DNA from: a virus | Taxonomy: Duplodnaviria; Heunggongvirae; Uroviricota; Caudoviricetes | Reading direction: 5' to 3' (one strand) | DNA length: 4,730 nucleotides | Virus record (IMG/VR): IMGVR_UViG_2711768074_000004 | Shown here: one piece after another, positions 1 to 4,730 of the stretch | How positions within the stretch are numbered: the stretch's first letter is position 1 | Layout of the letters: every line of letters starts with the position of its first letter | The notes under the pieces: model-generated | The model's database searches: none | What the model was told of the DNA's origin: nothing | Seen by the model: only the letters and a program-made list of their open reading frames with translations | Program-made: the position numbers and the translations under genes

Positions 1-32
1 CAGTGATCCAGGTCCGGTGTTTCATACGATAG

Positions 33-54
33 TGTCCATTAAAAATGATGGACA
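33..54. promoter_or_regulatory. perfect 7-bp inverted repeat TGTCCAT-N8-ATGGACA, candidate operator / protein-binding site
   Basis: TGTCCAT at 33-39 and ATGGACA at 48-54, read directly; AT-rich spacer TAAAAATG. Lies at the degraded 5' end of the Rha-like gene. Confidence 0.3.
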
Positions 55-123
55 TTATTTTTGTAGAGCCGGAGGAAACAGACCAGACGGTTTAAATGAG
101 CCGGTTACAAAAAGATTCGCATT

Positions 124-552
124 TTGGATTGTTCTCCAGAGTTTTGTGCCCGCAATTTTGCGGAGACATCAATTTTGGTACGCCAGCCCAACGGCGGTAC
201 TCGCAAACTACCTTGCTATCAAATAACCCGCGATGGCTTTGCGTTTCTTGCTATGGGTTTCACGGGTAAACGTGCTGCCCAGTTCAAAGAGGCATACATC
301 AATGCCTTTAACCAGATGGAGAAACAGCTTTCAAAGCCCTCTGTACCGAGCGACGTTGCACATAACGCCAGCGTTCTCTATTCCTACATTTCATCAATTC
401 ATCAGGTCTGGTTGCAGCAGCTTTATCCCATGCTGGAAAAAGCTGAATCACCGCTGGCTGTAAGTCTGTATGACCGAATTAACGATGCGGCATTTCTTGC
501 CCGTCTTATTCATTCGTCGCTGAACTCTTCAGAGGTAAGGGGGCGCAAATGA
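124..552 (+). CDS. Rha-family phage regulatory protein; only the C-terminal half of the Rha domain is in this frame, 5' end appears degraded or frameshifted
   Basis: Translation contains LDCSPEF...NFAETS...LPCYQITRDGFAFLAMGFTGKRAAQFKEAYINAFNQME, which matches the conserved C-terminal half of the Rha domain as I recall it. An in-frame stop lies at 97-99 immediately upstream, and the ORF-track start at 124 is a TTG with no clear Shine-Dalgarno. N-terminal-like fragments appear in the other two frames upstream (MMDIIFVE..., ...EPVT...). Confidence 0.55.
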   Translation: MDCSPEFCARNFAETSILVRQPNGGTRKLPCYQITRDGFAFLAMGFTGKRAAQFKEAYINAFNQMEKQLSKPSVPSDVAHNASVLYSYISSIHQVWLQQLYPMLEKAESPLAVSLYDRINDAAFLARLIHSSLNSSEVRGRK

Positions 553-773
553 TCCGGAATATTTTCAAACGTTTTACCAATCAGACTTTCCGTTGTCCTC
601 GTCCGGGTCAGTGGTACACCACGCCTGCAGGGCATGTTCTACGTGTTAGCCTGGTTGACCGTGAATGTCAGAAGGTGGTTTGTGAACCGCTGGGCCGTAA
701 TTACCGCGTCAGTATGCCGCTTATAGCCTTTCGCTCCGGAAAAAACATGAAGCATCTCGGAGGTGCTGCATGA
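549..773 (+). CDS. hypothetical small phage protein (74 aa)
   Basis: ATG at 549 overlaps the upstream stop (ATGA). Shine-Dalgarno-like AAGGGGG at 538-543. Its stop in turn overlaps the start of the replication gene. Three Cys residues; no family recognised. Confidence 0.5.
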   Translation: MIRNIFKRFTNQTFRCPRPGQWYTTPAGHVLRVSLVDRECQKVVCEPLGRNYRVSMPLIAFRSGKNMKHLGGAA

Positions 774-1588
774 GTATGGAGCTGATGGTTAAAGCGATGA
801 AAATTCGAGTGGGAAATCCATTGCGAAAACTGGTTCTGATCAAGCTGGCTGATAATGCCAGCGATCAGGGGGAGTGCTGGCCCAGCTACCAGCATATTGC
901 TGACCAGTGCGAGATTAGCAAACGTTCTGTGATGAATCATATTGCGGCCCTTTGTGAGTCCGGGCTGGTAAAAAAAGTCACCCGGAAAGGTGAAAAAGGT
1001 AACTCAAGTAATATCTATCTCCTTCATCTGGATGGTGCAGGAGATTCACTAGGGGGTAGTGCAAATAATTCACTATCTGGTGCAGCAAATTCACCAGGTA
1101 GTGCAGGAGTTGCACCAGGGGGTAGTGCAGGAGATTCACCCAGAACCAGTCACTCTTTTGAACCAGTCAAAGAACCAGTCAATGAACCAATAGCTGTTGG
1201 TGCATCTGCTGATGAGTCTGTGCGAGTTCGTTCAAACCGACCGGAATACTCTCCGGAGTTTGAGCAGGCATGGCTGGTATATCCCAAACGTGCTGGTGGC
1301 AATTCAAAATCTGCAGCCTTCAAAGCCTGGAAAGCCCGTTTGAATGAGGGGGTAAACCCCGAAACCATGCTGGAAGGTGTGAAACGCTACGCGGGCTGGG
1401 TATCTGCGATGGGTAACAGCGGCACACAATTTGTGAAACAGGCTGTCACGTTCTTTGGTCCGGATCGTCATTTCGAAGAATCCTGGGAAGTTCCTGCGGT
1501 ATCTGCAGCCAGACGCGAGGACCCGTACTTCAAAGCCAGTTACGACAATGTGGACTACAGCCAGATCCCGGTAGGATTCAGGGGGTGA
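770..1588 (+). CDS. phage replication initiation protein: N-terminal helix-turn-helix domain, Gly/Ser/Ala-rich linker encoded by iteron-like repeats, C-terminal domain of unrecognised family
   Basis: ATG 770 preceded by GGAGG at 759-763. N-terminus (NPLRKLVLIKLADNASDQGECWPSYQHIADQCEISKRSVMNHIAALCESGLV) resembles the HTH of phage O-like / DnaD-like initiators. The middle of the gene (1031-1193) consists of direct DNA repeats, as lambda ori does inside gene O. Confidence 0.8.
   Translation: MSMELMVKAMKIRVGNPLRKLVLIKLADNASDQGECWPSYQHIADQCEISKRSVMNHIAALCESGLVKKVTRKGEKGNSSNIYLLHLDGAGDSLGGSANNSLSGAANSPGSAGVAPGGSAGDSPRTSHSFEPVKEPVNEPIAVGASADESVRVRSNRPEYSPEFEQAWLVYPKRAGGNSKSAAFKAWKARLNEGVNPETMLEGVKRYAGWVSAMGNSGTQFVKQAVTFFGPDRHFEESWEVPAVSAARREDPYFKASYDNVDYSQIPVGFRG
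1031..1141. repeat. five imperfect ~20-24 bp direct repeats (iteron-like), core GGT(A)GTGCA-N5-T(T/G)CAC with internal dyad symmetry; putative phage ori
   Basis: Units read directly: 1031 GATGGTGCAGGAGATTCACT; 1051 AGGGGGTAGTGCAAATAATTCACT; 1075 ATCTGGTGCAGCAAATTCACC; 1096 AGGTAGTGCAGGAGTTGCACC; 1117 AGGGGGTAGTGCAGGAGATTCACCC. Unit 4 carries a perfect GTGCA/TGCAC inverted pair. Confidence 0.5.
1143..1193. repeat. three copies of GAACCAGTCA plus one degenerate copy (GAACCAATAG), immediately downstream of the iteron block
   Basis: GAACCAGTCA at 1143-1152, 1160-1169 and 1172-1181; GAACCAATAG at 1184-1193. Confidence 0.4.
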
Positions 1589-1590
1589 TC

Positions 1591-2079
1591 ATGAGTCTTT
1601 TGAATGAAGTTCAGAAATTCATTGAAGCCCATCCGGGGTGTACTTCCGGAGACATTGCGGATGCTTTTGCAGGTTACTCACGGCAGCGCGTTCTGCAGTC
1701 TGCAAGCAAGTTACGTCAGAGTGGGCGTGTGGCTCACCGTTGTGAAGGAGATACACGCAGACATTTCCCACGCCTGACTGAGAGAGCGCAGGAGCCGGAA
1801 CCACAACCAGTTCGTGAAACCAGACCTGTGCGCAATTTCTATGTCGGCACTAACGATCCCCGGGTGATTTTGTGCCTGACCCGCCAGGCTGAAGAACTGG
1901 AGTCAAGGGGCTTATACCGTCGTGCTGCAACCGTGTGGATGGCGGCATTCCGTGAAAGCCACTCCCAGCCAGAACGAAACAATTTTCTGGCGCGTCGTGA
2001 GCGGTGCTTACGGAAAAGCAGCAAGCGCGCTGCATCAGGTGAAGAGTGGTATCTATCAGGGAATTACGTGGGGGCTTAA
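1591..2079 (+). CDS. PerC-family transcriptional regulator-like protein with an N-terminal winged-helix-like extension
   Basis: C-terminal segment AEELESRGLYRRAATVWMAAF...ERNNFLARRERCL matches the PerC signature as I recall it (A..LE..GLWRRAA.RW ... RR..C). ATG at 1591 follows GGGGG at 1580-1584; the ORF track's GTG at 1585 is in frame and overlaps the upstream stop. Stop TAA 2077-2079 overlaps the next ATG (TAATG). Confidence 0.6.
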   Translation: MSLLNEVQKFIEAHPGCTSGDIADAFAGYSRQRVLQSASKLRQSGRVAHRCEGDTRRHFPRLTERAQEPEPQPVRETRPVRNFYVGTNDPRVILCLTRQAEELESRGLYRRAATVWMAAFRESHSQPERNNFLARRERCLRKSSKRAASGEEWYLSGNYVGA

Positions 2080-2732
2080 TGAGTAATAAATATTGCCAGG
2101 CGCTGGTGGAACTGCGGAACAAACCAGCCCATGAACTGAAGGAAGTGGGCGATCAGTGGCGCACGCCGGACAACATTTTCTGGGGAATTAACACCCTGTT
2201 TGGCCCGTTTGTTCTGGATCTGTTCACTGATGGTGATAACGCCAAATGTGCCGCTTATTACACTGCGGAAGACAACGCGCTGGCGCATGACTGGTCAGAA
2301 CGTCTTGCGGAGCTTAAAGGTGCTGCCTTTGGTAATCCCCCGTACAGCCGCGCCAGTCAGCATGAGGGGCAATACATCACCGGCATGCGTTACATCATGA
2401 AACATGCCAGTGCTATGCGTGATAAAGGCGGGCGCTATGTTTTCCTGATCAAAGCTGCCACCAGCGAAGTGTGGTGGCCGGAAGATGCAGACCATATTGC
2501 TTTTATTCGCGGGCGTATTGGTTTTGAACTGCCAGCCTGGTTTATCCCGAAGGACGAGAAGCAGGTGCCGACAGGCGCTTTCTTCGCTGGTGCTATTGCT
2601 GTTTTCGACAAGACCTGGAAGGGACCGGCAATCAGCTACATCGGGCGCGATGAACTTGAGGCATGTGGTGAGGCGTTTCTGGCGCAGGTTCGCCAGCAGG
2701 CAGAAAAACTTGTCAGGGAGATGGCGGCATGA
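2079..2732 (+). CDS. DNA N6-adenine methyltransferase, phage Dam family; orphan (no restriction endonuclease partner in the window)
   Basis: Translation MSNKYCQALVELRNKPAHELKEVGDQWRTPDNIFWGINTLFGPFVLDLFTDGDNAKCAAYYT...FGNPPYS carries the NPPY catalytic motif of amino-methyltransferases. ATG 2079 preceded by GGGG at 2071-2074; the ORF-track start at 2046 is an in-frame upstream extension lying inside the previous gene. Confidence 0.85.
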   Translation: MSNKYCQALVELRNKPAHELKEVGDQWRTPDNIFWGINTLFGPFVLDLFTDGDNAKCAAYYTAEDNALAHDWSERLAELKGAAFGNPPYSRASQHEGQYITGMRYIMKHASAMRDKGGRYVFLIKAATSEVWWPEDADHIAFIRGRIGFELPAWFIPKDEKQVPTGAFFAGAIAVFDKTWKGPAISYIGRDELEACGEAFLAQVRQQAEKLVREMAA

Positions 2733-3055
2733 CGACGTTAACTCAATGCCAGCAGCAGGTGCTGGATATGCTGATTTCTTACCAGCAAGAGCGTGGCTTT
2801 CCGCCAACCAATCAGGAGGTGGCAACCATGCTGGGATACCGTTCAGTGAATGCAGCGGTGGAGCATCTTCGCGCACTGGAGAAAAAAGGCGTCATCACGA
2901 TAAAGCGTGGCGTGGCCCGGGGGATCACGCTTCATACCGCAGTGAAGGACGACGACAGCGAAGCGGTCGGTATCATCCGCGCACTGCTTGCCGGTGAGGA
3001 GAGCGCCAGGTTGCGTGCAGCCCACTGGTTACATGAGAGGGGCCTGAAAGTATGA
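2729..3055 (+). CDS. LexA DNA-binding-domain family protein (winged HTH only, no S24 peptidase domain)
   Basis: LTQCQQQVLDMLISYQQERGFPPTNQEVATMLGYRSVNAAVEHLRALEKKGVITIKRGVARGITL aligns along its length with the E. coli LexA N-terminus ([65 protein letters not shown]). At 108 aa it has no room for the cleavage site or Ser/Lys dyad. ATG overlaps the methyltransferase stop (ATGA). Confidence 0.8.
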   Translation: MTTLTQCQQQVLDMLISYQQERGFPPTNQEVATMLGYRSVNAAVEHLRALEKKGVITIKRGVARGITLHTAVKDDDSEAVGIIRALLAGEESARLRAAHWLHERGLKV

Positions 3056-3441
3056 AGTTGATCCTTCCTTTCCCGCCCAGTGTGAACACGTACTGGCGAC
3101 ACCCCAACAAAGGGGCATTTGCTGGTAAGAGCCTGATAAGCGAGGCGGGGCGAAAATTTCAGAGCGCGGCGTGCGCAGCAATAGTTGAGCAGTTACGTCG
3201 TCTGCCGAAACCAACGTCGGCACCTGCTTCAGTGGAGATCGTGTTGTTTCCGCCGGATAACCGGATCCGTGATCTGGACAACTATAACAAGGCGCTGTTT
3301 GACGCCCTGACCCACGCGGGTGTGTGGGAAGACGACAGACAGGTGAAAAGAATGCTGGTGGAGTGGGGACCGGTTATCCCGAAAGGGAAGGTCGAGATCA
3401 CTATCAGTAAGTACGAGAAAACGGCGGGTGCAGCCGCCTGA
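3052..3441 (+). CDS. rusA: RusA-family Holliday junction resolvase (crossover junction endodeoxyribonuclease)
   Basis: PFPPSVNTYWRH...RIRDLDNYNKALFDALTHAGVWEDDRQV...EITISKYE parallels E. coli RusA (LPWPPSNNRYYRH...[28 protein letters not shown]...ELTITE), including the catalytic acidic residues. ATG overlaps the upstream stop. Confidence 0.9.
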   Translation: MKLILPFPPSVNTYWRHPNKGAFAGKSLISEAGRKFQSAACAAIVEQLRRLPKPTSAPASVEIVLFPPDNRIRDLDNYNKALFDALTHAGVWEDDRQVKRMLVEWGPVIPKGKVEITISKYEKTAGAAA

Positions 3442-3460
3442 TCAAGAGGAGAAACGAAGT

Positions 3461-4270
3461 ATGAATAATCTGATGGTCATTGATGGTATTGAAGTTCGTC
3501 GTGATGCTTATGGGCGTTACAGCCTGAACGATCTGCATCGCGCAGCAGTAGCATCTGGTGCAAATGCCAGAACCAAGGAGCCAGGAAAGTTTCTTTCCAG
3601 CCAACAAACTGTTGAGCTTGTTCATGAATTGACCAACACCCAGAATTTGGGTGTTGACCCGGTGAGTGTGATTCATGGGGGAAATGAACGGGGAACGTAT
3701 GTCTGCAAGGAACTGGTGTATGCCTATGCAATGTGGATCAGCCCGTCATTCCATCTGAAGGTGATCCGTACTTTCGACATGGTAACCAGCGCACCGGAAA
3801 AATTATCCGGACAGGCTGCTGACAAGATGCAGGCTGGTGTGATTCTGCTGGACTTTATGCGCCGGGAATTAAACCTGTCTAACTCTTCAGTGCTTGGTGC
3901 CTGTCAGAAACTCCAGGAGGCTGTTGGCTTACCGAATCTGGCACCGCGCTATGCCATTGATGCTCCTGCTGACGCGCCTGATGGCTCAAGCCGCCCCACG
4001 CTGTCACTGAGTGCACTGCTGAAGCAGTATGGTATCCGCCTGACAGCTAATCAGGCATATCACCAGATGGCGAAGCTGGGGATCGTTGAACAACGTGAAC
4101 GATACAGCCGCACTGCGATTAACAACATCAAAAAATTCTGGTCGCTGACAGCGAAAGGCTGCATGTTCGGCAAGAACATCACCAGTCCCGCAAATCCGCG
4201 CGAGACGCAGCCGCATTTCTTCGAATCCCGGTTCCCTGAGCTGTTAAAGCTGCTCGATACCGTTCATTGA
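3461..4270 (+). CDS. KilA-N domain protein with KilAC/Ant-like C-terminal region (antirepressor-like)
   Basis: N-terminus MNNLMVIDGIEVRRDAYGRYSLNDLHRAA...GTYVCKELVYAYAMWISPSFHLKVIRTFD is KilA-N-like; C-terminal part (LSALLKQYGIRLTANQAYHQMAKLGIVEQRE...) resembles the KilAC/Ant C-terminal domain. ATG 3461 preceded by AAGAGGAG at 3445-3452; the ORF-track start at 3428 is an upstream in-frame extension overlapping rusA. Confidence 0.8.
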   Translation: MNNLMVIDGIEVRRDAYGRYSLNDLHRAAVASGANARTKEPGKFLSSQQTVELVHELTNTQNLGVDPVSVIHGGNERGTYVCKELVYAYAMWISPSFHLKVIRTFDMVTSAPEKLSGQAADKMQAGVILLDFMRRELNLSNSSVLGACQKLQEAVGLPNLAPRYAIDAPADAPDGSSRPTLSLSALLKQYGIRLTANQAYHQMAKLGIVEQRERYSRTAINNIKKFWSLTAKGCMFGKNITSPANPRETQPHFFESRFPELLKLLDTVH

Positions 4271-4271
4271 G

Positions 4272-4643
4272 GTGACCGTGAGAGCGCTACTGACCCCTGA
4301 AATTGCCCCGCGTATGGGGATCGTATTGTTCAGGCCAGGTTCAGAGCTGATGCCCCTGTTTATGCAGGGGCGTGTCCTGCTGGAGCCTGAGCCGGAACGT
4401 TATTCATCTTTCGCCAGTGGTGCCGTTCCGGCGGCATCACAACCGCTGGCGGATGATCCTGCCGTTCGGGCCGTGTTCCGCAATGAGGCAGTGATCCGTC
4501 GTGCTGGTGGCGTGGAATGTCTTGAAAGCTGGTTACTTCGTGAAAAAGGCTGCCAGTGGCCTCATTCCGACTGGCACAGCGAGAACATGACAACAATGCG
4601 ACACGCGCCGGGCGCAATCCGTCTGTGCTGGCACTGCGGGTAA
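4272..4643 (+). CDS. hypothetical nin-region protein, 3'-truncated by IS1 insertion; last residue and stop codon are supplied by the IS1 terminus
   Basis: ORF opens directly after the KilA-N gene stop (in-frame GTG 4272/4278 near GAGGTGA, or ATG 4314). It ends ...LCWHCG-TAA, where codon GGG 4638-4640 straddles the IS1 boundary and TAA 4641-4643 lies inside the IS1 inverted repeat. Family not recognised; a DUF968/YdfU-type protein is a possibility from genomic position only. Confidence 0.5.
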   Translation: MTVRALLTPEIAPRMGIVLFRPGSELMPLFMQGRVLLEPEPERYSSFASGAVPAASQPLADDPAVRAVFRNEAVIRRAGGVECLESWLLREKGCQWPHSDWHSENMTTMRHAPGAIRLCWHCG

Positions 4644-4730
4644 TGACTCCAACTTATTGATAGTGTTTTATGTTCAGATAATGCCCGATGACTTTGTCAT
4701 GCAGCTCCACCGATTTTGAGAACGACAGCG
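4639..4730 (-). mobile_element. IS1 insertion sequence, partial (92 bp in window), reverse orientation; the IRR end abuts the phage DNA
   Basis: 4639-4730 GGTAATGACTCCAACTTATTGATAGTGTTTTATGTTCAGATAATGCCCGATGACTTTGTCATGCAGCTCCACCGATTTTGAGAACGACAGCG matches the reverse complement of the right end of IS1 as I recall it, including the ~23-bp terminal inverted repeat at 4639-4661. Confidence 0.9.
4654..4730 (-). CDS. insB: IS1 transposase InsB, C-terminal fragment (partial; continues beyond the window)
   Basis: Minus-strand translation of 4730..4654 gives ...LSFSKSVELHDKVIGHYLNIKHYQ-stop, the InsB C-terminus. Confidence 0.75.
   Translation of the reverse strand, partial: LSFSKSVELHDKVIGHYLNIKHYQ

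Follow-up and report, generated by a model that had tools for sequence, protein, structure and literature searches.

A lambdoid-prophage Ash+Rha gene very probably interrupted by an IS66-family element

The truncated Rha gene at the left edge of the window (the whole stretch of DNA that was analysed, 4,730 bases) is best read as an insertion pseudogene, made by transposition of an IS66-family element into the Ash+Rha gene of a lambdoid prophage; we put the probability of this reading at about 0.96. The element, oriented against the gene, would have entered between codons 240 and 241, inside the Rha domain, and would have duplicated 8 bp of the target (AAAAAGAT). The window would then start 108 bp within the element, leaving the tnpA-proximal tip, one copy of the duplication and the 3'-terminal third of the gene, with neither promoter nor start. 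The unusual peptides in other frames, like the in-frame stop at 97-99, would accordingly be IS sequence, and a full-length Rha protein could no longer be made. While the window itself holds one element end and one duplication copy, the full anatomy was read from sister assemblies that span the element. The features around the junction are as follows.

1-108, minus strand: IS66-family terminal 108 bp, tnpA-proximal end; the element continues past the window's left edge
2-55, minus strand: IS66-family tnpA codons 1-18 (MSIIFNGHYRMKHRTWIT...), ATG at 55-53; the tnpA annotated in another copy (L002) ends at locus position 4055, which equals window position 55
79-108, no strand: imperfect terminal inverted repeat, read outward-in GTAACCGGCTCATTTAAACCGTCTGGTCTG; 18 of 30 positions match the opposite end GTAAGCGACTCGTCAGAACCGTATTGATAT
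109-116, no strand: target-site duplication AAAAAGAT, 8 bp, right-hand copy; the left copy lies beyond the window, upstream of the IS
109-552, plus strand: ash-rha 3' fragment, codons 241-387 and stop, from tblastn, Pfam and megablast
124-552, plus strand: mechanical ORF of 142 aa with a TTG start, the longest frame-1 ORF in the ORF list
549-773, plus strand: 74-aa gene, the first in an overlapping early chain; its ATG overlaps the rha stop (ATGA), with the same order in ten related loci

The interrupted gene and its intact relatives

What is left of the Rha domain, two thirds of it, is located at approximately 127-324 and is followed by the C-terminal region. The match to Phage_pRha (PF09669) reaches 66-67 bits, with a gathering cut-off of 29.9 bits, and covers model positions 30/32-91 of 91. 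A first-pass annotation of the same DNA had called the Rha-like gene 5'-truncated, and this is borne out by comparison with the intact relative from E. coli PigCaeca_1, in which positions 1-91 are covered. The in-frame stop it had placed just before the conserved half was confirmed as the TGA at 97-99 in frame 1. No complete Rha domain in a gene with its own start is present here; IS DNA and this stop precede the frame. The same annotation had named a TTG as the only nearby start. The longest frame-1 ORF does begin at the TTG at 124, but the in-frame ATG at 253 had been overlooked, from which a gene caller reported a 99-aa ORF in one of the sister assemblies (L015, see below).

For comparison, relatives were chosen as contigs that encode exactly the replication protein of the window (770-1588). 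Among the matches listed, nine of ten loci carry an intact gene of 382-387 aa with an Ash (PF10554) and a Rha (PF09669) domain; the tenth, with the interrupted gene, is L015. The fragment in the window shares 99-100% identity with the last 147 residues of the intact genes and occurs in the same position and gene order. It thus corresponds to the Ash+Rha form of Rha known from lambdoid prophages, which has the same place between a cII-like (CP76) gene and the replication genes. In contrast to the intact form, the start codon context is missing, and the IS separates the fragment from the Ash domain as well as from the initial 38 residues of the Rha region. The best megablast matches to intact rha genes, found in 96 E. 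coli genomes and in phages, start at base 109. No match to an intact rha gene reaches upstream of this base, either with window 1-800 or with the whole window searched against 5,426 E. coli genomes and the phage collection. A chimeric frame-2 ORF at 17-226 returned noise matches only in the Pfam scan.

The starts of the rha matches vary: those to many phages and prophages, among them the cdtI phage, mEp460 and Stx phages, begin only at 201/202, those to Salmonella phages at 151 and others at 109. Such staggered starts point to putative mosaic recombination joints within the Rha domain.

A crude consensus scan gave no promoter-like (sigma-70-like) sites in 1-800, and direct reading of the sequence revealed no Shine-Dalgarno sequence upstream of TTG 124 or ATG 253. 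The one terminator-like hairpin in 1-800, at 229-243, equals the number expected by chance. Since promoter-like sites are absent from 1-800 and both starts lack a Shine-Dalgarno sequence, we infer that the 3' fragment is unexpressed. The truncated ORF is very unlikely to yield a functioning, shortened Rha derivative, whether begun at TTG 124 or at ATG 253 and driven, for instance, by read-out from the IS. In its favor, the 147 codons are still open and identical in the assemblies with the insertion, and the 99-aa ORF is reported by gene callers. However, besides the absent expression signals, the Rha domain lacks its first third, and the openness may only mean that the insertion is recent, as 0 differences from L015 were found over 3,442 bases. 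Also very unlikely is a reading according to which the Rha C-terminal or the Ash-plus-partial-Rha fragment would be expressed with a new regulatory role (e.g. dominant-negative on Rha or anti-repressors of co-resident prophages) and the immobilized IS would lock the prophage as a domesticated element.

The IS66-family element and its junctions

Terminal inverted repeats that start with 5'-GTAA are a hallmark of the IS66 family, for which a target duplication of 8 bp is also usual. Window 98-108 reads ...GAGCCGGTTAC, with TTAC at 105-108 as the reverse complement of the GTAA terminus. The 18 of 30 matches between the two ends compared, GTAAGCGACTCG... and GTAACCGGCTCA..., include GTAA and AACCGT. 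Window 1-108 is the end of an IS66-family element and is identical (108/108) to six independent copies in unrelated contexts, namely an RHS region, a dynamin-like gene, a tail-fibre gene and F-type plasmids. When searched alone, window 1-125 matched approximately 5,300 sites in 1,738 E. coli genomes, at most 18 per genome and on chromosomes as well as plasmids. All of the matches listed are annotated as 'IS66-like element accessory protein TnpA'. In the annotated copies tnpA is adjoined by tnpB and an 'IS66-like element ISCro1 family transposase' (RefSeq); 'ISCro1' is used here as this RefSeq/PGAP family label and not as an ISfinder-verified name.

Two sister assemblies contain the whole element. 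The first (L015; GCA_000188775.2, a 68-kb contig) is identical to the window over 1-3442 with 0 differences. The second (L016), an IMG/VR provirus found by means of the exact 34-base junction, is identical over its 2,621 available bases. Both are also identical at the extra T of the IS described below and may be the same genome. In both, the complete element measures 2,700 bp, has GTAA-type inverted repeats and carries tnpA/tnpB/tnpC with PF01527, PF05717 and PF03050, and AAAAAGAT is duplicated at its two flanks. The junctions in L015 and in the reverse complement of L016 read ...CTGAAAAAGAT / gtaagcg...ccggttac / AAAAAGAT TCGC, whereas the intact gene reads CTGAAAAAGATCCGC, with AAAAAGAT present once. 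Codons 1-240 are intact about 2.7 kb upstream, beyond the element. The upstream fragment would end with ...LKKM-stop, one codon into the IS, by way of the TAA in the GTAA terminus.

The gene order in L015 is an Ash-containing ORF of 243 aa, the opposite-strand genes tnpC (in two pieces), tnpB and tnpA, and the 99-aa Rha remnant. TnpA (225 aa) matches PF01527 (HTH_Tnp_1), TnpB (115 aa) matches PF05717 (TnpB_IS66), and TnpC, split into 253 and 206 aa, matches PF13007/PF13005/PF03050/PF13817 (zf-IS66/DDE_Tnp_IS66). In its imperfect GTAA repeats, the 8-bp duplication, a length of about 2.7 kb and the tnpA-tnpB-tnpC arrangement the element is similar to known members of the IS66 family (relatives IS679 and IS66). 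An 'ISCro1' insertion is given as 2,824 bp in the literature (PMC8764528). In L015 and L016 the element inserted here is 2,700 bp long instead of the 2,699 bp of other copies, with one extra T that splits tnpC. This +1 T is located outside the window, near position ~3491 of L015 (IS position 852), where GGGCATTCAGC is found instead of the GGGCATCAGC of the 2,699-bp copies. The intact transposase of an active, autonomous element is therefore not seen at this site in the sister assemblies, and the IS copy may no longer supply its own transposase.

In silico removal of the element together with one duplication copy restored an open Ash+Rha frame of 387 codons. Across the former junction this frame reads ...FFSKRHDDVLKKIRILDCSPEF..., as in the intact PigCaeca_1 gene, and nine related prophages have intact genes of 382-387 aa with which the reconstructed one is collinear. 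Its residues 241-386 align to window 109-546 with 100% identity (tblastn, E 6e-106). A direct junction check by script showed that seven further copies of the element are each flanked by their own 8-bp duplication. With both junctions and the 8-bp duplication, the breakpoint has the standard signature of real transposition.

In the sampled copies of the ISCro1 family, a sample biased by BLAST rank, the duplications are A/purine-rich: AAATAATT, AAACAGAC, GAAGATAT, GATGAGAA, GAAACAGT and GAAATATA (L002, L017-L022). In the same rank-biased sample several IS copies match the window for a few bases past the IS end, and the flank of L002 resembles the window flank over about 17 bases. A target preference for AAAnAnATTCGCATTTT-like sites was rejected, as BLAST rank, hence similarity to the window flank, had determined which copies were sampled.

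The exact junction was found in none of the 5,426 complete E. coli genomes (megablast) and is therefore confined to a narrow lineage. The exact 34-base junction gave no match in a one-genome-per-species collection either. With a 20-mer of the junction, three matches in unrelated MAGs were obtained, which alignment showed to be due to chance. A generic repeat finder applied to L015 2600-5380 did not return the IS inverted repeats and the 8-bp duplication among its top families, because the inverted repeats are too imperfect for its 8-base seed and chance repeats dominated the output.

A mis-assembly at the repeat, by which an IS end was joined to a gene that is intact in reality, is highly improbable. 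The window does begin and end within multi-copy insertion sequences (1-108 and 4639-4730), which is typical of a short-read break or mis-join. Against this, the junction recurs in an independent contig of 68 kb, which runs through the entire element and shows both junctions, the perfect 8-bp target duplication would not result from a mis-join, and the breakpoint coincides with the IS terminus to the base.

The first-pass annotation had attributed the truncation to small indels, or alternatively to sequence errors, with pieces of the Rha N-terminus surviving in other frames. Three intact Ash-Rha/Rha proteins were compared with window 1-600 by permissive tblastn (E up to 1000, word size 2). Each query gave a single significant alignment (E 1e-86 to 2e-108), which lies in frame 1, starts at nt 109 or 112 and reveals no frameshift. 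Alignments touching 1-108 in any frame had E values of about 3 or worse, with the Rha N-terminus out of register, so the upstream frames carry no Rha-like residues. Homology that continues upstream in another frame was not found; at the DNA level it ends at 109. The two peptides put forward as remnants, MMDIIFVEPEETDQTV in frame 3 (45-92, MMDIIFVE...) and GLNEPVT in frame 2, are correct translations but have no likeness to Rha and are encoded by IS DNA. The former is a plus-strand reading that starts across the start of the minus-strand tnpA gene and runs on into the IS leader, and the latter is a translation of the IS inverted repeat. Frameshifting of rha by indels or sequencing errors, with remnants of the N-terminus in frames 2 and 3 at 45-110, has the stop directly before the conserved part and the short hydrophobic peptides in its favor, yet it is refuted by the 100% identity of 1-108 to the IS end, the lack of Rha-like residues there in any frame, the abrupt end of rha DNA homology at 109 without gapped continuation, and the true N-terminal codons that are intact 2.7 kb off in L015 and L016. 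The cut is clean at 108/109. The gene had rightly been suspected to be a pseudogene; the cause is an IS66-family insertion instead.

Downstream early genes and the right edge of the window

The fragment is followed by the 74-aa ORF, an HTH_36/DnaD_N-type replication protein, PerC, Dam, a LexA-like protein, RusA, KilA-N and DUF968, and in relatives then by antiterminator Q. Overlaps of 4 bp (ATGA or GTGA) at 549-552, 770-773 and 1585-1588 join successive early genes, which suggests possible translational coupling along an operon 3' of the disrupted rha. Transcription of these early genes would normally start at a rightward promoter under repressor control, 5' of the cro-like and CP76 genes. The IS66-family insertion is probably polar, so that both transcription of the downstream replication and early genes and their translational coupling would be impaired. 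That function is lost and the insertion polar is deduced from the absence of promoter-like sites in 1-800, the ATGA/GTGA overlaps and a published ISCro1 case, in which the insertion lowered the transcription of a neighboring gene or operon (PMC8764528).

Iteron-like direct repeats are located at 1035-1139 and 1143-1183, inside the HTH_36/DnaD_N replication-initiator gene (770-1588). They consist of GTGCAGGAGATTCAC-type units and three copies of GAACCAGTCA and encode a low-complexity Gly/Ser/Ala linker. By analogy with lambda O, these repeats may be the replication origin of the prophage.

At the right edge, window 4639-4730 is an IS1 terminus (GGTAATGACTCCAACTTATTGATAG...), inserted in a DUF968/HNH-type gene that starts at 4278. 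Of this gene 120 of 329 codons are left, and the ORF stops at a TAA within the IS1 end; in L015 the gene is uninterrupted. Both ends of the 4,730-base window are thus situated about 100 bases inside multi-copy insertion sequences. This suggests that the window is an entire short-read contig, interrupted on either side by repeats. The window boundaries are therefore explained by the bracketing IS66-family and IS1 elements.

Up to the IS1 junction, the window and L015 show 20 differences over 4,638 aligned bases. Nineteen of them cluster at 3991-4613, in the KilA-N and DUF968 genes, and the remaining one is found at 3443. This clustering looks like a recombination patch, as opposed to uniform divergence.

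Two insertion sequences (IS66-family and IS1) in the early region of one prophage are similar to what is found in IS-disrupted genes of cryptic E. coli prophages, and the insertion fits a decaying, cryptic state of the prophage. IS insertion of this kind is already known; the feature is ordinary and touches no open biological question. For annotation, an IS-interrupted ash-rha pseudogene beside an IS66-family end should be recorded, not a frameshift, a sequence error or a short Rha protein. The two bracketing insertion sequences mark the prophage as probably defective.
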